The position numbers and the translations under genes were made by a program. The notes under the pieces were generated by a model, which saw nothing but the letters and a program-made list of their open reading frames with translations, had not been told where the DNA came from and did not search any database. 64,000 bases of DNA from Dictyostelium discoideum (taxonomy: Eukaryota), in the NCBI GenBank assembly GCA_000004695.1, contig CM000153.2, forward strand, positions 2,656,001 to 2,720,000, in the 5' to 3' direction. Shown one piece after another: positions 1 to 40,687 of the stretch; within the stretch, counting starts at the first letter, position 1; each line of letters begins with the position of its first letter.

Positions 1-59
1 TTTTTTTCTTTGTGATCATACTGAATAAAATTAAGTTTTATTTGGCATTCACAATGGAA

Positions 60-185
60 CTTTCAATTGAAATTTGTTGTGATTGAAAATTTTTTTTTTA
101 AATAATTTTTTTATTTGAAAATTGTATGAATTCACACACAAAAAAAAAAATATCTTTGGACCGGATTTAAAATAATAAACAAAAG

Positions 186-217
<32 letters not shown>

Positions 218-482
218 CTTTTCTTTTTTTTTTTTAATTTTCTTTTTTTTTCTTTATTTTTTTTTTTTATTATTTTATTTCTTTTTTTTTTCTTTCTTTT
301 TTTTTTTTTCTTAGTAAGCCTGGGGCAAATTACAATTTGATTTTTCCCTGTCCTCTAAACCAAAAAAAAAAAAAATTTAAAAATTAATCGAACTGATTTC
401 TCAAAATTGATTGACTTGCACAAAAAAAAATTTGCACAATAATTCACATAATCAATTTGAAGTTTCAAATATTGGGTTTTTG

Positions 483-517
<35 letters not shown>

Positions 518-1260
518 GTCCAATCGCACACGATCATTGAAAAAAAAAAAAAAAGAAAATAAAATTAAATTTTTTAAAAAAAAATATCTTCGAATTTGAA
601 AAGAAAAATCAGCTAGAAAAAAAAAGTATAAAAATGAAAATTTTTTTTTTTTTAATCATTCCAAAACAACAATTTTACTCTGTACTATTACCTCTACAAC
701 TATTTTTTTGTAACATTAAACTTAAATCAATTGTATATTATTTTAAAAAAAATAAATAAATAAAGATGTTAATTGGTAAATATTTATATATAAAATTAAA
801 ATAAAACTATCAACAAAATAAATAAATAAATAAATAATTGCTAACATTTTAATAATCAAAATTAAATTTTAGACGCTTTAACCAAACTCTCATTCGGTGC
901 TGGTAAATCAAGTGCCACCAAGGTTTCCTCCAAATCATCCACTGGTATTTCCTTTGGAAATAACAATGTAACATGGAATGGTCTCCCACCACCACCACCA
1001 CCACCACCATACGTATGTGTTTTCTCTCTATTTTAGAATTTATCTTTAAAATATATTCCATTACTAACCCATTTCCCTCTTTCTTTTTTTTTCTATCTTT
1101 TATTTTAATTCTAATAGCGTGGTGATGCTCCAGAAGAAGAAGAATAATTGTAAAATTATTTAAAAATAAAATACCCGTTATTGGGTCGATGTATTACTTA
1201 ATATATATAGGATTGGATTTGAGAGTATTCAGTTGTGTATTTATTATTATTATTGTAATT
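60..1260. repeat. Tandem segmental duplication, copy 1 (~1.2 kb unit)
   Basis: Seen in sequence: blocks at 60-150, 620-740, 838-1150 and 1150-1260 recur in the same order and orientation at 2405-2490, 2905-3040, 3178-3480 and 3480-3600. One example is '...gctaacattttaataatcaaaattaaattttagacgctttaaccaaactctcattcggtgc...ccaccaccaccaccaccaccatacgtatgtgttttctctctattttagaatttatc' at 838 and again at 3178, with a few substitutions and indels. Confidence 0.8.
766..1147 (+). CDS. Hypothetical 59-aa Pro-rich micro-protein (copy 1); exons 766-775, 873-1012, 1118-1147
   Basis: ATGTTAATTG|gtaaat gives a 10-nt first exon. ttttag|ACGCTTTAACC...CCATAC|gtatgt is exon 2. ctaatag|CGTGGTGATGCTCCAGAAGAAGAAGAATAA is exon 3. 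Spliced product: MLIDALTKLSFGAGKSSATKVSSKSSTGISFGNNNVTWNGLPPPPPPPPYRGDAPEEEE*. All junctions are canonical GT..AG and exon phases are consistent (10, 140, 30 nt). No recognisable family. Confidence 0.35.
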
Positions 1261-1607
1261 GTTTTTTTTTATTTTTTTCGAATGGAGGTGGTGCAACTCG
1301 TTTGTGATTTTTAAAATTTCTTTGAAATTATGGAAAAAATAAATAATAAAATTTCTTATTTGTTTGAATTGTAAATACAAAAAAAAAAATAAAAAAATAA
1401 ACGATTAATTAAATCTGTATAATTTAAAAATAAAAATTTTTTTTAATAAGTTAAAAATTAAGGTGATATTAAAACATTAACAACCTACAACACAGCCAAC
1501 CAAAAGCAAATCCACTCCCATTGGAGGACTATTTGGATAATAAGCAAATACACGATCAATAAAGGAGTTACTGGTAAAATTAGATCAATTGATTCATTTA
1601 GGTGGAT

Positions 1608-1886
1608 ATGTACAAAAATTTACCAACTGTGTCACAAATGGTAATACACATTGAAGGATCAAATTATGTTCAATCGGCTATTCTACCACATTATATACAA
1701 GCTACACATAAAGAAGACTTACTTTTCGATTTAGATTTAAACTATCTTTTCAATCTTGGTATAGTTACATTTGAGAGAGTGCTCGGATTGATTGAAACAT
1801 TGAACCAACAAGAACAGCAACAACAAAATAATATAGCAATAGTAGTACAAAAACAACAGGAAACAACTTTCACAATTTTAAAATAA
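1608..1886 (+). CDS. Hypothetical 92-aa protein inside a non-AT-rich island
   Basis: ATG at 1608 lies inside the listed GTG-started ORF at 1602. Product: MYKNLPTVSQMVIHIEGSNYVQSAILPHYIQATHKEDLLFDLDLNYLFNLGIVTFERVLGLIETLNQQEQQQQNNIAIVVQKQQETTFTILK*. The surrounding 1480-2030 is only ~60% A+T, which is a coding-like composition. No family recognised; it could be one exon of a larger gene. Confidence 0.3.
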   Translation: MYKNLPTVSQMVIHIEGSNYVQSAILPHYIQATHKEDLLFDLDLNYLFNLGIVTFERVLGLIETLNQQEQQQQNNIAIVVQKQQETTFTILK

Positions 1887-2404
1887 ATTAGAGAATCAAA
1901 TACCACCAACACCAAACTCATTGAATAAAATCTACTTCAATTGGTGAGGATGGTAAACCTTTGTACCGATGTAAAGATGTTGGTGGTGATACCTTTATGG
2001 TCCATTCAAAGGAACCATTTTAAATATTTTTTAGAAAAGTAAATCACCAATTTACTTTTTTTTAAAAAAAAAAAATTTAATCCAAAAAAAAAAAAAAAAA
2101 ATAAAATAAAATTGGATTACAATTCACTTTTTTATTAAAATTATCTCATATCTATTTAAAAAAAGAGTAGATATATTATCTATTTTTTTATCTATTTTTT
2201 TTTTTTTTTATGAGGTTACTTTTTTTTTTTATTTTTTTTTTTTGCATCTTCCAAATACAAAAGATATTTTTCAATTAAATAATAATTTTAATTTTTTTTA
2301 AATATCAAATTAAATAAAATTTTATTAAAATGTTTTTCATGATTCACAATTCTTGTGAACTTTCACTGGTGGAAATTTTTTTTTTTAGGCACTAAAAATC
2401 TTTT

Positions 2405-3600
2405 TTTAATTGAAATTTGTTGTGTTGGAATTTTTTTTTTTTTTTTTTTATATTAATTATTTTATTTGAAAATTGGATTGATTTTATTTTTAGCAAAGAT
2501 TAGATCTCGCACACAAAATAAAAATATCTTTGCGCACAATAAATTTAATTTTATTTATTTTATTAAATTTAATCCAATAAACTCACTCCCATTTAATTTA
2601 ACCTATTTTTTTTTTTTCTTTTCTTTTTTTTTTTTCTTTTTCTTTTTTTTTTTATTTTTAGTGAAAATTAGTTGGGCAAAATGATATATTTTGATTTTTC
2701 AATATCCTTCAAAACAAAAAAAAATAATTTAAAAAAAATAAAAATGATTTTAAATAAAAAAAAACTAAAATTATGATATTTCCTCATACAAAATATAGTT
2801 TCATCAATTTGTGTTTTTTTTAAAAAAAAAAAAAATAAAAAAAAACAAATTGTAAATTAATATCTTCAAGGAAAATGATTTAAAGAAAAACAAACACTTA
2901 AAAAAAAAAGTATAAAAATGAAATTTTTTTTTTTTTTTTAATCATTTCAAAACAACAATTTGTACCAATACTACTATTATTTCTATTTGTAAAAATACTT
3001 TCTATCTTTTAATATAATTTTAAATATTATCAACAACCCAAAAAAAAAATAAATAAATAAATAAATATAAAAATAAAAATGTTAATTGGTAAAAATTAAT
3101 TTTTTAAATGAATAAAAATTAAAATTAAAATAAAACAATCAACAAAATAAATAATTAAATAAATAAATAAAATAATTGCTAACATTTTAATAATCAAAAT
3201 TAAATTTTAGACGCTTTAACCAAACTCTCATTCGGTGCCAGTAAATCAAGTGCTACCAAGGTTTCCTCCAAATCATCCACTGGTATTTCCTTTGGAAATA
3301 ACAATGTAACATGGAATGGTCTCCCACCACCACCACCACCACCACCATACGTATGTGTTTTCTCTCTATTTTAGAATTTATCTTTAAATATGTTCCATTA
3401 CTAACCTGTTTTTCATTTTTCTTTTTCTTTTTCTTTTTCTTTTTTAATAGCGTGATGCTCCAGAAGAAGAATAATTGTAAACTATTTAAAAATAAATCAC
3501 TCATCACAGAGCCAATGTATTTCAAAATATATCATTTATTTTAAAAATAAAAATAACCCTTAATTGGGTATTCATTACAAAATATAATATATATATATAT
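2405..3600. repeat. Tandem segmental duplication, copy 2
   Basis: Same evidence as copy 1. The ~1.15-kb spacer (1260-2405) is unique and contains a non-AT-rich island. Confidence 0.8.
3079..3474 (+). CDS. Hypothetical Pro-rich micro-protein (copy 2); exons 3079-3088, 3211-3350, 3451-3474
   Basis: Same three-exon structure (ATGTTAATTG|gtaaaa; ttttag|ACGCTTTAACC...CCATAC|gtatgt; ttaatag|CGTGATGCTCCAGAAGAAGAATAA). The product differs by Gly->Ser, one fewer Pro and a C-terminus of RDAPEEE*. The minus-strand ORFs at 849..1061 and 3253..3525 are the antisense of these exons. Confidence 0.35.
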
Positions 3601-3669
3601 AAATAATTTAATATTTTGATATTAATTTTATTATTGTTTTTTTTTTTTTTTTTTTTTATAAAGAGTTAA

Positions 3670-7221
<3,552 letters not shown>

Positions 7222-7611
7222 GGTTTTAATTTTTAAATTTTTTTTATTTTATTTTATTTTATATTTTATTTTTTAATTTTTATTTATTATTATTATTTGT
7301 TTTTTTATTTTTTTTATTATTATTATTTGTTTTTTTAATAAATAAATATATATATGTTTATATGTTTATATGTTTAAAAAAATTATTAATAAAAAAAAAA
7401 AATTATAAAATACATTTACACAAATAAATTTTTTTTTTTTTTTTTTTTTTTTATCTATTTTTTATTTTAAAAATTTTTTTTTTTTATTTTTTATTTTAAA
7501 AATTTTTTTTTTAATTTTAAATTTTGTTGTCCAAAAGTGTATGACACTTGTCCCACCCTTTTTTTTAATATTTTCCAAAAATAATTAAAATTTCAACAAC
7601 TTTTTTATTTT

Positions 7612-7642
<31 letters not shown>

Positions 7643-7857
7643 TTTTTTTTTTATCTGTTTACAAATTTCTTTATAACCCCTTTTTTTTTTTTTTTTTTTT
7701 TTTTTTACAATTTTTTAAATGTAATTTTTTTTTTTTTTTTTTTTACTTTCACTATCTATTTTAAAAACATTATACAAAATATTCATTTTTATAACTTTAT
7801 TTCTATTTTCGTAATTATCGTTTTAAAAAATCCCCCCAAAATTTCGAAACATAAATA

Positions 7858-7898
<41 letters not shown>

Positions 7899-8010
7899 AT
7901 TTTTTAGAAAAATGAAAACACTTTTCTAAATAAAAAAAATGGTTTTAAAAAATTTTTAGGTTTTTTTTTTTTTTATTTTATTAAATTTATTCACATAGTG
8001 TATTAAAACT

Positions 8011-9078
8011 ATGAAATTATTTATTTTATTAATATTATTAATAGGTGTATTATTATTTAATGGGATCAATGGTGATGAATATGTAAATTTCATACCCTAT
8101 TCAAATGATGAATGTGTAGGTGATGAAATTGGTATTGGATATTCAAGTTTATTATCAAAATGTTTACCTTCTATTGATTCTCAACAAAATTATTTATTTA
8201 CATTGAAACCAAAAAATGTAATAGAATGGAAAGTTTTCAAATATTCAAATAAAAATCACCACAATAACGATAGTTGCAATCTAAATAAAACTACCATTTT
8301 ACAACCATCATTTACAACTAAAATCGGATCATGTATTTCAAGTGAATATATTAATTTAGATTCAAAGATTTCATTATCTTCACCAACCCACTACAAAATA
8401 TCAATTACAAAGAATTCACCATATATTAGCGCAAAATCAATTGTTAATAGTTTTACATTTGATAAAAAATGTTCTTCTTCTTCAAATAATAATAATGATG
8501 ATGATGTTTTATTAATTCAATATTTTACAAATGATTTAAATGTTAAATTAAACAATAAAAATAAGATTTCATATCATTGTATAAACGATAAAGCATTTAC
8601 CAAAAATCAATTTGAATTTGTTGAACCAATAACTAAAGAATGTGTGCAATTTGGAAATGGTAATGCTAATGCTATTTCAAGTTTAATTAAAAATAAATTT
8701 GTGGATTTAAAATTTGGATTTGGAAGTGGAAGTGGGAGTGGAAGTGGAAGTAGTGGTGGTGAAGATTCAAGTAGTACTACTGGTAATACTGGTGATTCAA
8801 GTACTGGAAATACTGGTGAATCATCAATATCATCAAGTACAGGTGGTAATAGTGATACTTCAGGTGGTAATAGTGGTTTTTCAAGTGATACCTCAGGTGG
8901 TAATAGTGGTTTTTCAAGTACAACCGAGGTTACAACTGCTACCTCTGCAACTACTGGTGGCGCAACAAGTGGTGATGATAATGATGGAACTGGTGCAACC
9001 AATTTCATTGATTATAAACTTCCAAATCCATCACCTACCCATCACAAAATTTTTAAAAAAACATATTGTTCCAAATAA
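8011..9078 (+). CDS. Secreted Ser/Gly/Thr-rich (mucin-like) protein with an N-terminal signal peptide
   Basis: MKLFILLILLIGVLLFNGINGDEY... is a hydrophobic signal peptide. The C-terminal third is low-complexity GSGSGSGSSGG...TGNTGDSSTGNTGESS...GGNSGFSSDTSGGNSGFSSTT. Single exon. Confidence 0.6.
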   Translation: MKLFILLILLIGVLLFNGINGDEYVNFIPYSNDECVGDEIGIGYSSLLSKCLPSIDSQQNYLFTLKPKNVIEWKVFKYSNKNHHNNDSCNLNKTTILQPSFTTKIGSCISSEYINLDSKISLSSPTHYKISITKNSPYISAKSIVNSFTFDKKCSSSSNNNNDDDVLLIQYFTNDLNVKLNNKNKISYHCINDKAFTKNQFEFVEPITKECVQFGNGNANAISSLIKNKFVDLKFGFGSGSGSGSGSSGGEDSSSTTGNTGDSSTGNTGESSISSSTGGNSDTSGGNSGFSSDTSGGNSGFSSTTEVTTATSATTGGATSGDDNDGTGATNFIDYKLPNPSPTHHKIFKKTYCSK

Positions 9079-9359
9079 AAAAATTAAAAAAATAAAATAA
9101 AAATAAAAATAAAATAAAAATAATTCCAATCATTATTATTATTATTTAAATAATTTTATAAAATAAAATAAAAATTATATATTTTTAAACTTTTCATTTA
9201 TTTATTTATTTATTTTTTATTTTTTTTATTTTTATTTTGAGAACAAACACACACAAAAATTTGTCATTTACAAAAAAAAAAAAAAAATTAAAAAATAAAA
9301 AAATTGTTTTTTTTTTTTTTCATATTTTTTGTGAAAATTAAGTATAATTAAAATTTAAA

Positions 9360-9576
9360 ATGAATAGAGGATTTAATAAATTTATGAATATCAATAGAAT
9401 AAATTTAAATTCAATTCTTAATTCAAAAAATTTTCAAAATCAAAAACTAATCTTTACAAAATTAAATAAACAAATTAAAAATGGTATTAACATTACATCA
9501 TTCCCTCAAATAAGAGAGTTTGCATCATCGTCATCATCATCGTCATCTCCTTCTTTTTCATTATCATCATTACTAC

Positions 9577-9658
<82 letters not shown>

Positions 9659-10157
9659 GAGAAATTATTACAAAAACAATAGAAATACCAATACTGAAAG
9701 TTTAGAAAATTGTTCATTGGGATTTAAAACTGGAGAATGGGATCAAGAAAAAAAAGATAAATATTATAAATCGGCAAAGAAATCATCATCTGTAATTTAT
9801 GCTATAATTGGTATCAATGTTGCTATTTGGAGTAAGTTAAAATAATCAATTTGTTTTAATATACCATTGAAAAAAAAAAAAAAAAAAAAAAAATTAATAT
9901 GGTTATTTATTTTTATTTTTTTTTTGTTACTAATTGAATAACAAATCAAATTAATTATTTGATTTTTATTTTTTCTAAAAATTTTAAATTAGTGTTTCTT
10001 AATAGTGATGATTCATATAGTTTTCAAAGAATGATTGGAAAGAATTTCATGTTGAGTCTTGATAATTTCAAAAGTCAACCAATAACTCTTTTGACAAGTA
10101 TGTTTGCTCACACTGATGGTTTTCATTTATTAGTAAGTATTATTATTATTATTATTG

Positions 10158-10203
<46 letters not shown>

Positions 10204-10735
10204 TACTAACTTTACCAACTCTATTATTTAAATTAGTTTAATGTAAATATTATTAGTTATTTATTTATTATTATTTATTATTTATTATTATTATTATTTT
10301 GAAATTAATTTTTTTTATTAGATGTTTGCATTATATTCATTAGGTCCAAATGTTTTATATTCGTTAGGTAGTTCAGCATTTTTTGGAATGTATATGGGTG
10401 CAGGTATTTTATCAGGTGTTGGATTTTTAGCAGTTCAAAAGTTTTATAATAGTAAAAATTATTACGATCAAAAGCGTTTACAAAATACTCGTGCCTTAGG
10501 AGCATCAGGAGCAATTAGTGGGGTTTTAATGCTGTTCGCTTGTTTATATCCAAGAATGACCCTCAATATTTATGGTATCATTCCAGTTCCAGCTGCACTT
10601 TTGGTATCTGCCTATTTCGCATACGATTTATATAATGAAGTTTTCAGAAAACAAACTGGTGTTTGTCATGTTGGTCATCTTTGTGGTGGTCTTTATGGTC
10701 TTGGTTATTATTTAGCAAATAGAAGAAGATTTTAA
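9360..10735 (+). CDS. Rhomboid-family intramembrane serine protease, PARL/Pcp1-like (mitochondrial); exons 9360-9831, 9993-10132, 10322-10735
   Basis: Exon 1 ends ATT TGG A|gtaagt. Exon 2 (aaattag|TGTTTC...CATTTATTA|gtaagt) encodes LLTSMFAHTDGFHLL, the rhomboid TM2 motif. Exon 3 (tttattag|ATGTTTGCA) encodes the catalytic GASGAISGV (GxSG serine) and VGHLCGGLYG (catalytic His). The N-terminus is basic and Ser-rich with an S17-S30 tract, consistent with a presequence. The product is about 341 aa. Confidence 0.8.
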
Positions 10736-10785
10736 AAATAAAATAAAAATAAAATAAAATAAATAAATAAAAAAAGTCAAATAAC

Positions 10786-10825
<40 letters not shown>

Positions 10826-10992
10826 TTCTTATTCTTGGTTCATAAAATAAAAATGAAATTCCTTTTGATTTTTTTCTTTTTTGATTTTTTATAAATATAC
10901 ATGTATACACACCAAATGGATATTTTATTCTATTTTATTTTATTTTATAGTCTAATGTATTATTTCTAATGTAATTATTATTATTATTGTCA

Positions 10993-11577
10993 TTATATTT
11001 TTGGAGAAGATGGTGAAGTTGGTGATGAAATTGAAGAGGATGATGACTCTGGTATTGATAATGATACATCTAAAAATTGATAATTGAAAAATAAATCATC
11101 TAAAGTTATTAAATCATCAGCAGATTTCTTATTTGAAAATACTGTTCCAATTGGTTTCGATACATATATACCCCTTGAATCTGGATAAATAAATGCAAAT
11201 TCAAATTTTGATTCTTTATGTCTTGCTAATTTATATGTTTCTTTAATTAAAATTGTAATTTCTTTTAATGTTGCATTTCTCCTAAATTAAATAAATAAAT
11301 TAATTAATAAATAAATTAAAAATTAAAAAATATAAAAAATATGAAATTACCATGTATAGATTTGAATTTCATCTTTTTCTGGTACATTTCTTGAAGAAAA
11401 TTCACTAGGACTATGAAATGAACCTTCTTTAATAAAAACTCTTAATAAGAATGGGCAGATCTTTTCCCTATTTAGTGTTGCTATTCCTAAATTACTTCCA
11501 TTGCCTGTTGAATTAATATTATTATTATTATTATTATAATGATAATTATGATGAGAGAAACCTCCCTTATTGGTCAT
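10993..11577 (-). CDS. sap18: SAP18 (Sin3-associated polypeptide p18) homologue; exons 11577-11351, 11281-10993
   Basis: Exon 1 encodes ...REKICPFLLRVFIKEGSFHSPSEFSSRNVPEKDEIQIYTW (compare human SAP18 REKTCPLLLRVF...EFSRGNVP..ELQIYTW). The donor is CATG|gtaatt. The acceptor ttaatttag|GAGAAATGC continues RNATLKEITILIKETYKLARHKESKFEFAFIYPDSRGIYVSKPIGTVF..., matching the SAP18 core. Confidence 0.85.
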
Positions 11578-11884
11578 TGGGAATATAATTTAAATAATTT
11601 TATGAAAAATAAAATTCAAAAAAAAAAAAAAAAAAAATTTATTCGAGAACGAATTGTTACTTATTTACTTGTTTATTTTTCATTATTATTTTTTTTTTTT
11701 ATTTTTATTTTTTTTTTTTTTTCATTTTTTATTTTCATTTTTTTTTTTTTTTCATTTTTTTTTTTTTTTTATCTTTTTTGAATTAATTTTTTTTTTTCAT
11801 CTTTTTGAATTAATTTTTTTTTTATTTTTATTTTTAATTTATTCAAGTTCAATTTTTTAAAAATATATATATATCCATATAAAG

Positions 11885-12401
11885 ATGTTAAAAAGTTTAA
11901 ATTTTATAAATAGAGTAACAGTATCTTCATTATCAAAAACTCGTAACTTCACATCACAAGTTAATAAAGAAACATGGGATAAATATGTTGCAAGCAATAA
12001 AAAACCAGTTGTTGTTGATTTCTTTGCTACGTATGTTTTTCTTTTTTAATTTTATTTTTGCCTATTTCTCTTATTCTTTTTAATTTTGTGTATAGATAAA
12101 AAAAAAAAATTTAAAAAAATAAAAACTAACCTAAACATTTTATTTTTATAGATGGTGTCCACCTTGTAAACAACTTGAACCAGTATTAGTAAAAGCAGTA
12201 GAAGATTATGGAAAATGTGATTTATATAAATATGACATATCTGAAGAAGAAGGATTTCACGAAAAATTTGGAATTCAATCAATTCCACATGTTATTGGTT
12301 TTCATAATAACAAAATAGTTTTCGAATTCAAAGGTGCCATTCCAGCATCCCAAGTTAAAAAACATTTGGAAAAATTTGATGAACATTTAGGCGAAAAATA
12401 A
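11885..12401 (+). CDS. Thioredoxin (WCPPCK active site) with an N-terminal presequence-like extension; exons 11885-12030, 12152-12401
   Basis: MLKSLNFINRVTVSSLSKTRNFTSQVNKETWDKYVASNKKPVVVDFFAT | WCPPCKQLEPVLVKAVEDYGKCDLYKYDISEEEGFHEKFGIQSIPHVIGFHNNKIVFEFKGAIPASQVKKHLEKFDEHLGEK*. The intron is GCTAC|gtatgt...tttttatag|ATGGTG. Confidence 0.85.
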
Positions 12402-12955
12402 AAAACAAATAAAAAAAAAAAAAATATATTAAATAAATAATTAAAAAAAAAAAAAAAAAAAATTTGGATAATTCCTTTTTATCATTTTTTTTTTTTAATT
12501 TATATTTATATTTATTTTTAAAAAATAATACTAATAATATTAATTAAAATTAACAGTTTTTGGTGGTTAATTTTTTAAAAAACAGATTTAAAAAAAAAAA
12601 AAAACCACAAAAAAAATAAAAAAAAAATCTAATTGTTTAAAGATTAAATATAAAATTAATTATTTTATTTTATTTTTTTTATCCACCCCATCTATTTAAT
12701 TTTATCCACCAAATGTACTTTAAATGCACTAGTTATTCTAAAGTAGTTTTTTTTAATTATTTAAAAAAAAAAAAAATATATTAAATAAATTTTAAAAAGA
12801 AAAAAATAAAAAAATAAAAAAATAAATATAAAAAAACAAAAAAAATTATTTAATTCAATAAAAAAAAATTTAAAAAAATTTATTAAAGGTTATAAACAAA
12901 TCATTCCTTCTTGACTTAAATAAATAATCAGTTACTCAATTATAAAAATTTTAAA

Positions 12956-13455
12956 ATGATTAGAAATATAAGTAAAAGTATTGTAAATTTAAATTCTCAA
13001 AAAATTGCAACAAATACTTCATTTAAAGAACTTGTACTTGAATCAAAAAAGCCTGTTATTGTAGATATTAGGCCATGGTAAATTTTAAAATAAAATAAAA
13101 TTAAAAAATAGAAAATAATAAAATGTTTATTGATTTTTAAATTTTTCTTAACATTTTTTTTTATTATTTTTTTTTTTTCTTTATTTATATATATAGTTAT
13201 TATACACCAACAAAGTTTTTAAATAAAGAATTATTTGAAGCAATTAAAGAAAAAAATGATACATTTGAATTAGTAACAATTGATTTCGATGAAGAATATG
13301 AATTGGCAAAGCTTTTAAAAATTCAAAGTTTTCCAACTATAATTGGTTTTTCAAATGGTAATTTCTTAAAAAAACATACTGGTCCATTCCGTAGTAAAAG
13401 CCATATCCTTGAATTTTTAAATCACATTGAAACTGAACATAAAAAAAAATATTAA
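12956..13455 (+). CDS. Thioredoxin-fold protein with a degenerate active site (CYYT instead of CxxC); exons 12956-13077, 13197-13455
   Basis: MIRNISKSIVNLNSQKIATNTSFKELVLESKKPVIVDIRP | CYYTPTKFLNKELFEAIKEKNDTFELVTIDFDEEYELAKLLKIQSFPTIIGFSNGNFLKKHTGPFRSKSHILEFLNHIETEHKKKY*. It has the same architecture and intron position as the thioredoxin 1 kb upstream, but the resolving Cys is absent. Confidence 0.65.
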
Positions 13456-13584
13456 TGTAAAACTCTAAAAAAAAAAAAAAAAAAAAAAAAAAAGCTTAAT
13501 TAAATAAAAAAAAAAAAACTAATAATAAAATGTATAATATATTTTTTAAAAATTCATTTTTATTTTATTTATTTATTATTTTAT

Positions 13585-15865
13585 TTATTTATTATTATTA
13601 TTATTATTTACCACATGATTTAATAATGCGATTGAATTTGAAAAAGAGAAATTAATATTTTGACCTCTTGATCTTATATAAATGGTACGAAGATTAATTA
13701 AAATATAAATTATTAAAGATATTAATAATGTAAATAACACAATCCATGGTAATACATGCATACCAATATATTGTTGACATATACCAATTAACCATGGAAT
13801 TACGATCTCTCCTGCCACTGCACCAATAACCATATAGGATGTTGATTCACCAGTAACTGGTATCGATAAATTTTGAGGGAGAGAGAACGCAGTTGGGAAA
13901 ATTGATGCTAAACTTAAACCCAATCCAGCAGTTGATATCCAAAGTATAGCTGATGAATTTGGGAAAAATATCATTAAAAGTGTAAAGAAGAAACAACCCA
14001 ATGTATCCATAATAACCATCTTTTGAGGTGACATTACCAATGATATAAAAACTCCTGCTAATCTACCAACTGTAAAACTTCCCCAAAACATTGAATTTAA
14101 TAATGCTCCTGTTTTTTCATCAAATTTTAAATTTTCAATACTATATTAAAAAAAAAAAAAAAAATTAGTTAAAATTATAATGATAAATAATTAATAATAA
14201 TAATAATAATTACCTAAATGTACAAATCCAACCACCAAAACCACTTTCACCACCGACATAAAAAAATAAGAATACAGCTATTGCAGCTATAACTTCAATT
14301 TTTAATCTTTTTTCTGTTTTTGAACTACTGATATCATTATTATTACTATTATTAATCTTTAAATCTGTTGATTCATTAATTTTATCATTTATAGTGTTTG
14401 TAATTGCATCATCAACAATATTTGAACTGTTATTATTATTATTATTATTACTATTATCATCAATATTACCAGTGGAAGGTATTAATTCAATATCTTCTAC
14501 AACTGGTGGTTTTGCAGGTTTTAAAAATATAACAGTAAGAAAACTTGAAAGCATAACCATTGATAATACGAAATATTGAGTGAATAATGAATTTTCAGAC
14601 ATTCCTGCAACAAATAAAGGTGCAACAAAAGCTCCAAGACCAAAAGAAAAATGTAAAAGTTGCATGAATGGGTTAACTTTTTCCTTCCATACCCAAACTA
14701 TTAATGTATTTAAACTTGAATCGATTAATCCTGCACCTCCACCCTCCAACATGAATAAAAATGCTGTTAACCAAATATTCTTACTTAATGGTATTAATAA
14801 TAATGATATTGACATTAATATAACACAACCTGCAATTACTAAATTATTATTTTTAACCCTATCTAAAAACTATTTTTTTTAAAAAATAAAATAAATAATA
14901 ATAATTTAGTAAATTAAAAAATAAATAGGATATATGATTATGTAATAATAACAATAATAATAATAATAATAATAATTATTATTATTATTACTTACTCTAC
15001 AACCTAATGAAAATATAAAATAACCAAGACCTCTTGCAGAAAAAAAATAACCAACTTGATCAGTTGAAGCATGTAAATGATAAGTGAAACTATGTAATGT
15101 TGGACCTAAAGAACCAACACTAATACCTAAAGCTACAAAACAAAATAAATAAGCTGAAGTTAAGATTAATTCAGATCTATGCATTGAAGCATCAATTTTA
15201 ATCTTTTCACATTGTTCCAGTATTCTTTCATAGATATTATTATTATAGTTCTTTTTAATATATTGACTGAAAGGGGCAATATAACCACTATCATCCATCG
15301 ATGTTATAAAATCACTTTCATTCAATTCATTAACTCCATTATCATCCAATGTTAATGTAAATTCGTTAAATGATTGTTGATGTTTATTTTTAAAATTTTT
15401 ACCATATATATTATCATCATCATATTCATTATTGTCATCGCTATAACTACCAATTACATTAATATTATTATTATTATAGTTGATATTATTATTATTACTA
15501 TTATTATTCGGTATATAATTACTATTATTATTATTATTATTATTACTTCTATTAGATGATTTTATATTTTGATAATCTTCCTCTTCTTCTTCTTCTTGTT
15601 GTTCTTCTTGTTGTTGCTGTTGTTGAATATCTATTGAAGTTTTTGGTGGTGAAATTAAACTTTGACTGTCATCATTAAATTCTTCAATTTCTCCAGACAT
15701 GTTTATATCCTCTTTACTTTGATTCATTATAATGGCACCACTATTTGATCCAATGGATGCTGTACCTTCTTCTGAAAATTCACTATCATATTGGTTAATA
15801 TTATTTTCATTGCCATTACTAACGCTATTTGAATCTTCCAATCTAATGAAATCTCCTTTTGTCAT
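13585..15865 (-). CDS. Major-facilitator-superfamily transporter, MFSD4 (sodium-dependent glucose transporter-like) family; exons 15865-14996, 14869-14214, 14140-13585
   Basis: Exon 1 has a long hydrophilic poly-N/Q/E N-terminus, then TM1/TM2 (LFCFVALGISVGSLGPTL...GYFFSARGLGYFIFSLGCR). It ends AGA|gtaagt. The acceptor aaaaaaaatag|TTTTTAGATAGG continues FLDRVKNNNLVIAGCVILMSISLLLIPL.... Exon 2 ends ...GGWICTF(AG|gtaatt). Exon 3 starts ttaatatag|TATTGAAAAT... and runs to ...NHVVNNNNNNK*. The exon-2 low boundary is placed to agree with the ORF-track frame. Confidence 0.7.
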
Positions 15866-15889
15866 TATTGTTATGGTGTGTGGGTTGAT

Positions 15890-15925
<36 letters not shown>

Positions 15926-16550
15926 TATTTGTCTATTTTTATTTTGAATCTAAATTATTATTGTTATTATATATTATTACTATTACTATTATTATTATTG
16001 TTATTACTAATAATACTATTATAATGTAATCGATTGGAAAATAAAATATAAATTAAAAGGTCTGGTGACTAGGTGGTTGACAAAAAAATAATAAAAAAAA
16101 AATTAAAAATAAAAAAAAAATAAAAAAAAAAAAAAAAATGAAAAATTAATTTGTTTTAAAAAAAAAAAATGACACCACAGTTAGTGTGTTAACGAAAAAT
16201 TAAAAAAAAAAATAAAAATTTTTTAAGAATTTCCCGTAATAACACAATTTTGATAGATATTTTAAATATAATATTTCACCAAACAAAAAAAAAAAAAAAT
16301 TAAATTTGATAAATAAAAAAAATAATAATAACCCATCCAACAAATTAAAATGAGTATCTCAAAAAAAACCTGATTTATATTTGATCATTTTTTTTTGATT
16401 ATTCTTTTTATCCAATTATCGTAAATAAATAAATATATAAAATATTTTAAGAAATTTAGTTTTAAAATTTTTTTTTTTTTTTTTATTGCTTGATTTTTTT
16501 TTTTTTTTTTTTTTTTTCTTATTAATTCTTTTTTTTTATTTTTTTTTTTT

Positions 16551-19180
16551 TTATTTCTTATTTTTACCACCACTTGGTTTTGACTTTTTAGAAGAATCTT
16601 TTGAACGTCCAACAGTTTTTAATTTATTCTTTTGAGCTCTTAAATCTTTCTTCATACGTTTATCAACGATCTTGTATTTACCAGTACCACCACCAGCAGT
16701 TTTTGATTTTTTAGCAATCATGATGATCTTCTTTGGTTTCATATTCTTCTTATCAGTACCAGAGTAAAGTTTTTCAATGGCTTTAGATTTCTCACGATTG
16801 GACATTTCTGGATTATCAACGATACTACTTGCCTTGTCACGAGTTTTCTCCATTTTCTTACCAAGACGATACTTCTTTCTAGCCTTAGCCTCTGCGATCT
16901 TCTTGATTGGACGATCATCAATTTCTTTAATCTTTCTTCTAATTTCATCGACCATTTCTTTGGTGAGTGGAGTTTGAGCTTTATTATGACGATTTTCATC
17001 ATCAGTGAACCAATTTGGTAAACCTGTATCATTGAATGCATATTTATTAAATGAATCATCGATTAAATCTTGTCTTGATTTCTTTCTAATCAAGAATTCA
17101 CCCAATGCTTTAGTTTTAATTTTATCATCAATATCTTCATCCGAGTCTGATTCATATTCAACCTCTTCTTGAACTGGTACTTCTTCGAAACCTTTAATGC
17201 TATTTCCTTTATCATCATCATCATCTTGATCATCTTTATCATCCAATGTTGGATTCTTTTGATATTTACTCTTTTGTTTACCAAATTCAGCACTGTTTGT
17301 AGTTTTTTGTTTCTTTGTAATTGGTTGAGCAGCTTGTGGTTTTTGTTTCTTTAATTTACTAATATCAATTGGTTTATTATTTTCATCATCTTGGTCGTCG
17401 TCGCCATCTTGTTCTGGTTCGGATTCAGAATCACCTGGATTTCTATATTCAACACCACCAAATAATTCATTATCAAAAAATAATGAACTAACAGCTTGAG
17501 CATCTGGTTCTTTACGTTTATTACCAACTAATAATGGATTTGATTCTTCTTGTTCTTCAACAAATTCTTCATCATCTTCATTATAACCATCTTGACCGAT
17601 TTTATCTTTTTTAACTTTAACATCATCTAATTTTGCTGCTTTCTTTCTAATTCTTTGTTGATATAATTTATATTGTTCATCTAATTGTTGTTCAAGATAT
17701 TCATCATCATCAATTAATTTTGAATCACCATTGTTGTCATCGTCGTCATCATCGTCAGAATCATCTGAATCAAATTCATCAGAACTGATATCACTATGAT
17801 CAGCTACAATATCTTCATCAAATTCATCTTTACCCTTCATTGAATATAAATCACCATCGGTAGTTTCTTCAATTTTATCACCTGGAATATGCATTGTTAA
17901 TTCAATCTTTCTTTGATGTTTACGTTTTAATTCATTTTGTCTCTTCTTTTCTTTTCTCTTTTTCTTTTCAACCAAAGCCAAGTACTCCTTCATCTCCTCT
18001 TGCAAATTCTCTTCCATTTCTTCGGCGGTTAATTCTTTCTTTTCCTCTGGTTTCTCGGTCTCTTCCTCATCTGGATTATCCAATTTCTCTTTATAGGCAG
18101 CCATAGCTTTCTTCCATTTAATGATTTTTTGGAAATCATTTTTATTTAAAACTTTCAAATCTTTAACCAACTCTTTAATCTCTGGTGTGGTCAATTCATG
18201 TTGTTCAAAGATTTTTGCGGCTTCATCAAATTCAAAGGCATTGAAATTTGCAAGATCTTGAAGATGTTCATTACTATTGACAAAATCTGAAATGAAACCT
18301 TTTTTATACAATACTGTGACGCCATCTTCGTAACCAGCTCTATTGACTTTTTTCTTCTCTGAAAGAACATCGACTTTCTTAACTTCTTGAATCTCCTTGA
18401 AAACGAATTTTGGATCTAATAATTTTGGATCGATTCTCTTTGGATTCAAAAAGCCTTGACAAACTACGAAAATCTCTGCTGATGCATTACGTGATGATGG
18501 TGGTTTAGTAGATTCAACTTTTTTAAAGAGTTTGTTGAATACCCAAATCAATGAATTATAATCTGAGCCTCTGAAAACTTTAGTTACAAACCAACCACCA
18601 GTAGTAAGGAATTCAGTTGCCAACTTTAATGCATGTAAAGTTAATTCCGCTTGTTGATATGCATCTTGTACCCATGATGTACCCATATTTGGTGCACCAT
18701 CATGTAAACATACATCAACTTTCCATGTTTTCAATGCTTTTTTAATCTCTGTTCTACACTTTTGTGTTGTAATATCTTCTGTTAAACCAATACAATTTCT
18801 AACTTGTCTAATTGGTACTAAATCTACACCAACAATTAATGATTGAACTGGCATATATTTTGATGCAACTTGCATCCTATATAATAATAAAAATAAAAAA
18901 ATAAAAAATAAAAAATAAAAAAAAAAAAACGAGATTAATATTTATTTATTTATAATATTTATATTTTTAATAAAATAATAATAATAATAATAATAAAAAC
19001 TTACCAACCACCTGGTGCAGCACAAAGATCTAAACAAGCTTTTGCGGTACCCAAAAAATTGTATTTTTTATTTAATTGAATTAATTTGAAAGCAGCACGA
19101 GATCTATAACCTTGCTCTTTGGCCATATAGTAAAACTTATCTAAACGACCCTTGGCTAACTTCTTTTTCTTTTGACCCAT
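16551..19180 (-). CDS. AdoMet-dependent rRNA 2'-O-methyltransferase Spb1/FtsJ3; exons 19180-19005, 18876-16551
   Basis: Exon 1: [59 protein letters not shown] (compare yeast Spb1 [44 protein letters not shown]...DLCAAPGSW). The donor is GGTTG|gtaagt. The acceptor atatag|GATGCAAGTTGC continues [21 protein letters not shown]...LHDGAPN...and ends in the Lys-rich Spb1 C-terminal domain. The product is about 833 aa. This may be the Dictyostelium fsjC locus; that assignment is unverified. Confidence 0.9.
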
Positions 19181-35905: not shown

Positions 35906-37567
35906 ATGGCAAATAAAAATGTATTATCAGAGATGGATGATTTGATGGCAGAGTTAGGATTAGTAGAGACTACAGCAACACCAACATCAGATCAAATCAA
36001 ACAACCACAACAAGAAACAGCACCAACATATCTTACATATAAAGATCCAAATGTATCAACAGGACCTGGAGGAGATTTTAGAAATTTAAATGACAATAAT
36101 GGTGGTATATCACGTGGACCAGGATTAATGAGTACAGGACCAGGATTAGTCAGTACAGGACCAGGATTAATGAGTACAGGACCAGGTTTAATGAGTAAAG
36201 GACCTGGTTTACCAAATAATAGTATCAATAATAATATAAGTAATAATAATGGTGGTGGTATTAGCTCAGGACCAGGATTATCATTTGGAGTATCATCAGG
36301 TGTATCATCAGGTGTATCATCAGGTGTATCATCAGGTGTATCATCAGGTGTAACATTAGTAGCACAAAATCATTTAGCACGTCAACCTTCACCACCATTA
36401 AATTCACAACAACAGCAACAGCAACAACTACCAACATATTTGGATGGAGTTGGTACATTACAACCAATTTCATTAGCAGCAACAACACCAGATGGACGTG
36501 TAGTTAAAGCTAATGGACCAATTTGCGGAGCATGTGGAGATATGATTATTGGAGTTTGTACAAATGCATTGGGACGTTCATATCATCCAGAGCATTTTGT
36601 ATGTACCTATTGTAAATTACCATTCTCAGGATCATTCATTGAACATGAAGAAAAGTTATATTGTGAGAATGATTATTTGGAATTATTTAGTCCACGTTGT
36701 TTCGCATGTATTAAACCAATTGAAGACACATGTATCAATGCATTGGGTAATCGTTATCATCCAGAGTGTTTCTCATGTTCAGGTTGTGGTGACAAGTTAC
36801 GTGGTAAACCATACAAAGAGGAGGATGGAGAAGTTTATTGTAACACATGTAAGATTGCAAGACAAAAACGTTTAGCAGCAAAATCTGAAATTTGTTCAAA
36901 ATGTAAACTTCCAATCACTGGTGAATACATTATTCTTCAAGGTCAACCAGTTCATTCGGAGCATTATCGTTGTGAAGAGTGTGGTTGTGAATTCAATGTG
37001 GGTAAAACTTGTCATGAATATGAGGGTCGTCTCTATTGTTATGAAGATTATCAAAAACAAATTCTCAATATATGTGGTGCTTGTTCAAAACCAATCGTTG
37101 GTCGTTCAATCACTGCTTTGGGTAAAGTTTGGCATCCAGAACATTTCACTTGTACCACTTGTCAAGTACCATTCGCTGGAAGTGCTTTTCGTGAACATGC
37201 TGGTAAACCCTATTGTGAATCACATTATCATCAATTCTTTGGTCGTCAATGTTTCAAATGTTCAAAACCTGTGGTTGACACTGGTGTTGAAGTATTTGGT
37301 AAAATCTATCATCGTGAACATTTCACTTGTACAGGTTGTGAATGTGTTTTAGGTAAAGAAATTATGGAATGGGATGGTAAACCACTTTGTTTCAAATGTT
37401 TTGATGCACTTCCAAAAGAAGTTAGAAAAAGAATTAAAGAAAAGAAAGCTGGTGATAAAAAAGCTGAAGCTTATCGTGAAAAATTAGCTAAAAAAGAAGC
37501 AAAAGAATTAAAAAAAGAAAGAGAAAGAGCTGCAAAAGAAAAAGAAAAAGAATCAAAAGCTAAATAA
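35906..37567 (+). CDS. Paxillin-like adaptor: N-terminal LD motif, Gly/Pro repeats and five tandem LIM domains (553 aa, single exon)
   Basis: LSEMDDLMAELGL is an LD motif. The repeats are GPGLMSTGPGLVSTGPGLMSTGPGLMSKGPGLP and (SSGV)5. There are five CX2CX16-23HX2CX2CX2CX16-21CX2(C/H/D) LIM units, starting CGACGDMIIG..., CFACIKPIED..., CSKCKLPITG..., CGACSKPIVG... and CFKCSKPVVD.... The K/E-rich tail comes from the A-rich 3' end. Confidence 0.85.
   Translation: MANKNVLSEMDDLMAELGLVETTATPTSDQIKQPQQETAPTYLTYKDPNVSTGPGGDFRNLNDNNGGISRGPGLMSTGPGLVSTGPGLMSTGPGLMSKGPGLPNNSINNNISNNNGGGISSGPGLSFGVSSGVSSGVSSGVSSGVSSGVTLVAQNHLARQPSPPLNSQQQQQQQLPTYLDGVGTLQPISLAATTPDGRVVKANGPICGACGDMIIGVCTNALGRSYHPEHFVCTYCKLPFSGSFIEHEEKLYCENDYLELFSPRCFACIKPIEDTCINALGNRYHPECFSCSGCGDKLRGKPYKEEDGEVYCNTCKIARQKRLAAKSEICSKCKLPITGEYIILQGQPVHSEHYRCEECGCEFNVGKTCHEYEGRLYCYEDYQKQILNICGACSKPIVGRSITALGKVWHPEHFTCTTCQVPFAGSAFREHAGKPYCESHYHQFFGRQCFKCSKPVVDTGVEVFGKIYHREHFTCTGCECVLGKEIMEWDGKPLCFKCFDALPKEVRKRIKEKKAGDKKAEAYREKLAKKEAKELKKERERAAKEKEKESKAK

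Positions 37568-38221: not shown

Positions 38222-40687
<2,466 letters not shown>

Follow-up and report, generated by a model that had tools for sequence, protein, structure and literature searches.

The first kilobases of a 64,000-nucleotide (nt) stretch of chromosome 4 of Dictyostelium discoideum (assembly GCA_000004695.1, contig CM000153.2, positions 2,656,001 to 2,720,000 of the forward strand) contain two similar segments, each of which carries a candidate gene of three exons whose first exon is only 10 nt long. We call the entire 64,000-nt stretch the window, and coordinates given without a prefix refer to it. This DNA has a G+C content of 15-36% and includes long open reading frames (ORFs) with poly-Asn tracts. 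A preliminary description of the sequence interpreted positions 60-3600 as a recent tandem segmental duplication. Two questions therefore arise at this locus, namely whether the micro-genes are real and whether the similarity of the two copies reflects a recent origin. We conclude that the region very probably holds two of four clustered paralogues of a small, annotated protein-coding gene of D. discoideum.

The micro-genes correspond to annotated D. discoideum proteins

The exon coordinates and splice junctions proposed earlier for the two genes, here called copy A and copy B, proved exact. Both models, which lie on the plus strand, remain in frame across GT..AG introns and yield products of 59 and 57 amino acids (aa), respectively. 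The spliced product of copy A, MLIDALTKLSFGAGKSSATKVSSKSSTGISFGNNNVTWNGLPPPPPPPPYRGDAPEEEE, matches DDB_G0284927 (XP_639937.1/EAL64927.1) of strain AX4 with 100% identity and 100% coverage, and that of copy B, a 57-aa variant, equals AX4 protein DDB_G0284931 (XP_639939.1/EAL64929.1) residue for residue. With both conceptual proteins equal to deposited ones, the micro-gene is real, with three exons of which the first measures 10 nt; since both genes already stand in the AX4 reference annotation, they are not new. The 59-aa protein is also annotated, in identical form, as DDB_G0285043, while DDB_G0284925 is a one-residue variant of it and DDB_G0271770 is a paralogue on chromosome 2. All family members are recorded in AX4 as 'hypothetical protein', with neither a function nor a family assigned, and a literature search did not turn up a paper that mentions any of the four chromosome 4 genes, whether by name or by UniProt or RefSeq accession.

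Copy A begins with the 10-nt exon ATGTTAATTG (766-775), which ends in phase 1 and is followed by a 97-nt intron 1 (776-872; GT..AG, 9% G+C) with a CTAAC motif 27 nt from the 3' splice site. Exon 2 (873-1012; 140 nt, 46% G+C) precedes a 105-nt intron 2 (1013-1117; GTATGT..AG) with a TACTAAC box 49 nt from the 3' splice site, and exon 3 (1118-1147) encodes RGDAPEEEE and then the stop codon. The layout of copy B is the same, with a 10-nt exon 1 (3079-3088), a 122-nt intron 1 (3089-3210), a 140-nt exon 2 (3211-3350), a 100-nt intron 2 (3351-3450) and an exon 3 (3451-3474) encoding RDAPEEE before the stop. All introns of the two copies are of the GT..AG type and low in G+C (8-22%, compared with 45-46% for exon 2), and each has a CTAAC or TACTAAC motif lying 27-49 nt upstream of its acceptor. 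An AATAAA hexamer is present 3' of each stop codon (1165-1170 in copy A).

The usual Dictyostelium core promoter combines a TATA box with an oligo-dT run, and this arrangement is found upstream of both genes. In copy A (626-653), the TATA box GTATAAAAA occupies positions 626-634 and the oligo-T run positions 641-653, and in copy B (2910-2939) the same TATA box at 2910-2918 is again followed by oligo-T. The sequence GTATAAA, located approximately 140 nt upstream of the ATG and followed by oligo-T, is invariant or nearly so in 10 gene copies from three species.

Copies A and B form half of a mirror-image cluster

Through a neighbouring 1183-aa ORF, we located the corresponding locus (L003) in a second D. 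discoideum assembly, GCA_054883475.1. This locus matches window positions 1-17244 with 99.76% identity over 17.2 kb, including both A and B. Two further copies lie on the opposite strand just past window position 1 (L003 17847-20348, approximately 640-3140 nt before it). Copy C (L003 18016-18412, approximately 806 nt before position 1) encodes the DDB_G0284925 protein, and copy D (L003 19865-20273) encodes the same protein as A. The cluster is thus a two-plus-two mirror image read outward from its centre, with A then B on one side and C then D on the other, and it lies between the gene for the 1183-aa protein and a P450 gene. Positions 1-765 are the window's share of a head-to-head intergenic and promoter region of about 1.57 kb that separates A from C. 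The order of the reference accessions, XP_639935 to XP_639939, agrees with the gene order D, C, A, DDB_G0284929, B, in which DDB_G0284929 is a gene of the spacer between A and B. What had been taken for a simple duplicate pair is therefore half of a four-copy cluster that the edge of the window cuts in two. All six pairwise comparisons among the four copies give similarities of 86-90% over 390-756 columns, and the longest alignment of copy B is with D on the opposite strand (87.3% over 756 columns).

Repeated segments of this kind can also be created by errors of assembly, and we found no point in favour of such an artefact here. Both copies recur in GCA_054883475.1, an independent assembly at chromosome scale, where the spacer matches with 100% identity across 1200 nt. 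Contigs assembled from six separate sequencing runs match positions 1103-2105 at 99.8-99.9% identity and continue from copy A into the spacer, and A and B differ by many substitutions and indels. Because the second assembly reproduces both copies with the spacer, and because the six-run contigs cover 1103-2105, an artefact, which the preliminary description had named as a possible refutation, has next to no probability.

Homologues that lack introns corroborate the splice junctions

In D. citrinum, the syntenic locus (L001) holds one gene on each side, forming a head-to-head pair. The annotated gene cit1 (L001 10001-10248) is without intron 1, reads ATGTTATTCGATGCTTTAAC contiguously and retains intron 2. 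Its unannotated partner on the other strand, cit2 (L001 8133-7812), has intron 1 after a 10-nt exon 1, is without intron 2 and reads ...CCAAAACGTGATGTCCCAACTGATGAAGAAGAATAA. The syntenic locus of D. firmibasis (L004) has a one-plus-two arrangement, in which firmM (L004 3077-2820, minus strand) and firmP1 (L004 4347-4605, plus strand), both unannotated, have intron 1 only, and the annotated firmP2 (L004 6001-6174) is intron-less. A fourth D. firmibasis copy, firmX (L002 10001-10271), is found on a different chromosome.

These homologues provide a direct reading of each junction. First, cit1 and firmP2 read ATGTT(A/G)TT(C/T)GA(T/C)GC without a break across the junction of exons 1 and 2. Second, intron 2 is missing from cit2 and from all four D. 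firmibasis copies, and the frame reads through. Third, the unannotated genes cit2, firmM and firmP1 have the 10-nt first exon and intact frames. Every proposed junction is thus read contiguously and in frame in at least one homologue, and because the homologues without a given intron keep one contiguous reading frame, this comparison lends the junctions strong support of a kind that does not depend on RNA data. The same pattern suggests that introns 1 and 2 would each have been lost or gained independently in different copies. Intron-less homologues thereby offer a cheap way of validating micro-exon gene models.

An alternative product would result if intron 2 were usually retained, giving a two-exon mRNA and a 57-aa protein ending in ...PPPPPPPPYVCVFSLF. 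The retained frame is open for eight codons in copies A, B and C, which would provide the alternative C-terminus YVCVFSLF before a stop, and copies A (1013-1050) and B (3351-3388) do not differ over the first 38 nt of intron 2. However, the donor of intron 2 is a strong GTATGT, the acceptor is AG and a TACTAAC box is in place, the retained frame of copy D differs, and cit2 encodes ...KRDVPTDEEE contiguously. Because cit2 encodes this sequence without interruption, the acidic tail is ancestral coding sequence, and we regard retention of intron 2 in the main product as improbable. The spliced three-exon mRNA remains our preferred model.

Two side observations concern the 3' half of these genes. 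Intron 2 of cit1 (L001 10146-10217) lies one nt upstream of the D. discoideum position (1013-1117), such that its context is AA/gt...ag/A in phase 2 rather than TAC/gt...ag/CGT in phase 0, with the CATTACTAAC box common to both. The shift resembles intron sliding by a single nucleotide. The coding sequence of D. firmibasis stops early (...WRPPPIE, then stop; L004 2830-2770, minus strand, and 4596-4660, plus strand), and the 3' untranslated region (UTR) contains a decayed copy of exon 3 (GGTGAT...GAAGAATAATTGTA) approximately 20-40 nt past the stop. Because the decayed exon persists there, we infer that the C-terminus was replaced in this lineage.

The supposition that gene finders usually miss such genes fails for the reference annotation, which includes them, and holds for newer annotations. 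In GCA_054883475.1, the interval from the 1183-aa gene to the P450 gene contains no gene call, leaving all four copies uncalled, and one of the two D. citrinum copies and two of the three syntenic D. firmibasis copies are likewise missing. Because newer automatic annotations thus miss seven of the ten genomic copies examined, genes with micro-exons appear to be systematically under-called.

The proteins are under purifying selection between species

Ratios of nonsynonymous to synonymous divergence (dN/dS, Nei-Gojobori) between species are 0.17-0.32, with synonymous divergence (dS) of 0.4-0.6 to D. citrinum and about 0.9-1.3 to D. firmibasis. The synonymous excess is significant by Fisher's test for A versus cit2 (P=4e-5), C versus cit1 (P=1.4e-3) and A versus firmM (P=2e-6). 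Furthermore, the frame has stayed intact where introns were lost independently, and every indel has a length divisible by 3. The low between-species dN/dS indicates that the micro-gene is a real coding gene under purifying selection.

A competing view is that the loci act mainly as RNAs and that the ORF is incidental. The ORF is very short, and for hssA, a small-protein gene considered below, a frame-shifted construct is reported to have still suppressed a mutant phenotype. This view is difficult to reconcile with the dN/dS values and the synonymous excess, or with a frame that survives intron loss and tolerates only indels in multiples of 3, and we consider it very unlikely. We accordingly treat the loci as protein-coding genes in what follows.

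The similarity of A and B is not a clock

Self-comparison of the window bears out a colinear repeat on the same strand, with unit A at approximately 61-1207 and unit B at approximately 2404-3546, each comprising a promoter, a 5'UTR, the gene (DDB_G0284927 or DDB_G0284931) and the proximal 3'UTR. The best high-scoring segment pair aligns 791-1170 with 3120-3496 at 90.5% identity over 390 columns (expectation value, E, 7e-143), and weaker colinear pieces with 77-92% identity lie upstream. In a global alignment of the whole units, 68% of columns are identical (84.7% ungapped), compared to 51% for shuffles. The '~90%-identical 1.2-kb copies' of the preliminary description are thus an accurate portrayal of the transcribed core of about 380 nt and not of the unit as a whole. 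The coding sequences are approximately 98% identical, with exon 1 at 100%, exon 2 at 97.9% (137/140) and exon 3 at 80%, where the difference consists of two in-frame indels. Identity in noncoding segments is 82% for intron 2, 76% for intron 1, 63% for the 5'UTR and 58% upstream. Among the protein differences noted earlier, the Gly/Ser exchange is real (G14S), as are the C-terminal indels, with one Gly and one Glu fewer in B. The supposed difference in the number of prolines was wrong; both exon 2 sequences are 140 nt long, and eight prolines are encoded in each copy.

The simplest history for such a pair would be a recent tandem duplication of a 1.2-kb unit, from A to B, with neutral divergence since. 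Several observations are compatible with it. The units are colinear, on the same strand and 2.3 kb apart, and their similarity is far above that of shuffles, with a core at 90.5%. The distal upstream region of B is A-like (70.6% over 265 nt). In addition, a single copy occupies this side of the D. citrinum cluster, which makes it probable that B is lineage-specific. However, four features speak against such a history. First, a recent tandem duplication should have diverged uniformly, and identity between A and B is instead very uneven, falling from 98% in the coding sequence to 58% upstream. Second, the proximal promoter and 5'UTR of B are of the type found in C, D and cit1, with 89.9% identity to D, and are not of the A type, which makes the B promoter a mosaic. 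Third, A and B are not each other's closest relatives, given that over its full length B is closest to D, with which it aligns further and better than with A. Fourth, similarity differs little across the six pairs that the four copies form. We therefore consider a simple tandem duplication of this kind unlikely.

Comparison with D. citrinum suggests how the discrepancy might be explained. The 700 nt upstream of A are colinear with the region upstream of cit2 over 607 nt and not with that of cit1, and the region upstream of C is colinear with that of cit1 over 634 nt and not with that of cit2. By this pattern the A and C lineages would be older than the split from D. citrinum. Nevertheless, the four D. 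discoideum coding sequences are nearly identical, with dS of 0.02-0.07 (0.07 for A versus C). Because synonymous divergence is this low in lineages that would predate the split, much of the similarity between A and B is probably due to gene conversion and not to a recent origin. The mirror copies firmM and firmP1 of D. firmibasis show the same pattern (dS 0.05).

A history consistent with these observations would start from a head-to-head pair, the arrangement found in all three species, to which the outer copies B and D would have been added in D. discoideum, one per side. Gene conversion would later have homogenised the transcribed regions, giving rise to cores that seem young and to mosaic promoters. 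The earlier characterization of A and B as a young duplicate pair is thus retained in part, since B is probably lineage-specific, but high core identity is no clock for the age of A and B when conversion and a mosaic promoter are involved. The cluster displays concerted evolution and, across three species that are very close, presence/absence polymorphism of both introns; if our reading is true, it would be a compact natural example of intron gain or loss, one-nucleotide intron sliding and gene conversion among close paralogues.

A small proline-rich product with a conserved motif

Protein profile searches (of indexed proteins, and by an exhaustive HMMER search of 1.84 billion representatives at E<=0.001) found family members only in D. 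discoideum, D. citrinum and D. firmibasis, and otherwise returned two unrelated poly-Pro proteins. As found, the micro-genes are one among many small, lineage-restricted, clustered Dictyostelium gene families and are of little importance. Peptide matches by tblastn at 36278-36397, 38858-38986 and 39329-39448 were rejected as Ser/Asn/Pro low-complexity sequence rather than family members. No Pfam family scores above threshold for the micro-gene proteins; matches to PRIMA1 and Androgen_recep are weak and driven by poly-Pro, and the PRIMA1 match persists in shuffles.

Alignments of the family show 23-25 invariant columns, including D4-K8, F31, G32, W38, G40, L41, P42-45, P48-49 and R51. Position 50 is variable (Y/K/W/M) and is followed by the invariant Arg, after which an acidic tail is present in D. 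discoideum, D. citrinum and the chromosome 2 paralogue. An AlphaFold2 model of poor quality, which has a mean predicted local distance difference test (pLDDT) score of 65 and a predicted template modelling (pTM) score of 0.20, contains a single helix at residues 3-10, and is consistent with a protein that would be intrinsically disordered apart from a short N-terminal helix.

The conserved segment W-x-G-L-P-P-P-P-x-x-P-P-x-R resembles ligands of three kinds of proline-recognition domain, for which the defining motifs are PxxPx[RK] (class II SH3 ligands), [FLWY]PPPP (EVH1 ligands) and at least six consecutive prolines (profilin ligands). First, GLPPPPxxPPxR fits PxxPxR, has the invariant Arg and is followed by acidic residues, and the PxxPxR consensus is present with strict spacing in all members except DDB_G0271770. 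Second, the segment has an LPPPP core comparable to the FPPPP or LPPPP of EVH1 ligands (ActA, zyxin, Robo CC2), with an anchor that is Leu and not Phe or Trp. Third, the proline segment is long enough to resemble the poly-L-proline bound by profilin. All three likenesses are at the level of the motif only. It is possible, if rather less than probable, that the protein serves through this segment as a small ligand or competitor for proline-recognition domains.

Expression data are available for the chromosome 2 paralogue. Read counts for DDB_G0271770 rise from 67/113 at 0 h to 1984/2980 at 4 h, fall to 40/55 at 8 h and then remain low, and in development they are 189/179 in wild type and 16/17 in an rblA mutant, which is approximately 11-fold lower (PMC3386910, Table S2). 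Because these counts peak at 4 h, transcription of at least one family member is strong and transient in early development, and by analogy the chromosome 4 copies probably act early in development as well.

Several points weigh against the account developed so far. A coding sequence of about 180 nt is too short to separate gene conversion fully from independent recent duplication, and copy B could have been lost in D. citrinum instead of gained in D. discoideum. The taxonomic range was derived from public proteins and may be wider than is apparent. The proposed function comes solely from motif matching in poly-proline sequence of low complexity, and DDB_G0271770 (PPPPAIPPMR) breaks the strict PxxPxR spacing. 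Finally, we found no direct evidence from transcripts or peptides for any of the four copies on chromosome 4, and the supplements of PMC6198379, PMC3640940 and PMC5282741 do not include them.

A possible link to the hssA/2C/7E genes

The micro-genes resemble the hssA/2C/7E genes, which have a 13-bp first exon followed by an exon of roughly 200 bp (PMC6198379). Both groups consist of tiny, clustered, multi-copy, Dictyostelium-restricted genes with a micro first exon, after which a phase-1 intron would follow in both, and their N-terminal motifs are similar (A-[IL]-T-x-[IL]-S). These similarities raise the possibility that the micro-gene family is a divergent, proline-tailed branch of hssA/2C/7E (sigN; PF05710) that inherited its micro first exon. 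In support of this idea, residues 3-37 of cit1 match positions 4-37 of the PF05710 profile in register (16.9 bits, E 0.012), and cit2 (16.4 bits) and firmX (13.3 bits) give N-terminal matches that are also in register. None of ten composition-matched N-terminal shuffles matches the profile, which suggests, on the basis of this small sample, that the order of the residues, and not a Ser-rich composition, underlies the match. If the one-residue offset in the Pfam alignment is right, the phase-1 intron after 13 nt in hssA would coincide with the phase-1 intron after 10 nt here. Moreover, the hssA primer GTGCTATTACCTCAATTTCAAG (PMC3640940) reads (G)AITSIS, comparable to DALTKLS in the micro-gene.

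Other results are less favourable. None of the PF05710 scores reaches the Pfam gathering threshold of 21.4 bits, and neither DDB_G0271770 nor any of the four chromosome 4 copies of D. discoideum matches the profile at all. The reciprocal test also failed, in that no hssA-type protein was among the results of the exhaustive HMMER profile search at E<=0.001. The two groups are unrelated in their C-terminal half, which here consists of poly-Pro and an acidic tail without Cys or a Gly-rich region and in hssA is Gly/Cys-rich, and the micro-gene family carries a second intron. Expression differs as well, with a 4-h peak for paralogue DDB_G0271770 and activity of hssA genes in prestalk or late cup cells. 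A direct comparison of introns would require an hssA-type gene, and none was found in the DNA fetched here. With both the threshold and the reciprocal tests failing, the hssA/2C/7E link is a lead and not membership, and while it merits attention we lean against common descent.

A study of Mef2A described another group of small prestalk proteins of '57-59 amino acid', DDB_G0283501-G0283519 and others, as not significantly similar to hssA (PMC3640940). That group is of the same size class as the micro-gene products and its genes are also clustered, but none of the five micro-gene family genes is in its list; the two groups were compared by description only.

A bolder proposal, which we regard as doubtful, would combine the two leads, making the family an unrecognised early-development, proline-tailed offshoot of the hssA/2C/7E superfamily of about 100 genes, with the micro-exon and phase-1 intron in common and with a WxGLPPPPxxPPxR segment that docks on SH3, EVH1 or profilin proteins. 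If true, this would provide the first biochemical handle on the superfamily, and if the hssA link and the proline-motif hypothesis both hold, a large family would gain a testable biochemical role.

The spacer and neighbouring features

The region between the repeat units (1208-2403) was described earlier as a unique spacer of about 1.15 kb. Its length of approximately 1.2 kb agrees with that description and it has no counterpart in the other three copies or at the D. citrinum or D. firmibasis loci, but it is not empty. The spacer carries the annotated single-exon gene DDB_G0284929 (1638-1886, plus strand), encoding a hypothetical protein of 82 aa that exactly matches EAL64928.1/XP_639938.1. 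Its open frame extends back to 1602/1608 and is marginally unusual in length (P=0.044 versus dinucleotide shuffles), and an island of elevated G+C content (31-38%) is present at 1450-2030. We found no Rfam or Pfam family in the spacer, and outside poly-Q and poly-A/T tracts it resembles neither the D. citrinum and D. firmibasis loci nor any other part of the window; a tblastx match to D. citrinum was rejected as a poly-Q tract inside a dubious gene call. A homology search with the spacer translation also returned nothing, but because the exact 82-aa ORF sits in the same collection and was missed, this negative result is unreliable and is not evidence of absence. The island may have originated as an insertion, a decayed gene or a de novo ORF.

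Downstream of copy B on the minus strand (3670-7221) lies the flanking single-exon ORF of 1183 aa, which has long poly-Asn and poly-Gln tracts and no Pfam domain. Its counterparts of 1317 aa in D. citrinum and 1172 aa in D. firmibasis flank the cluster in those species as well. Genes for short-chain dehydrogenases (adh_short) adjoin both the chromosome 4 type of cluster and the second locus (L001 14889-15923, L004 8842-9908, L002 10675-13411). The D. firmibasis gene firmX is probably the counterpart of DDB_G0271770, and the adh_short neighbours at both loci hint at an old segmental duplication that included the micro-gene.

Finally, an imperfect palindrome of 104 nt is located upstream of copy D (L003 19246-19348), with arms TTGTCCAATTAAAAAGTTG(G/A)GAAATTTGATAT. 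Single-arm relatives of this element are present upstream of copy C (L003 ~17320-17390) and of cit1 (L001 ~9340-9400), and the palindrome may be a shared cis element.

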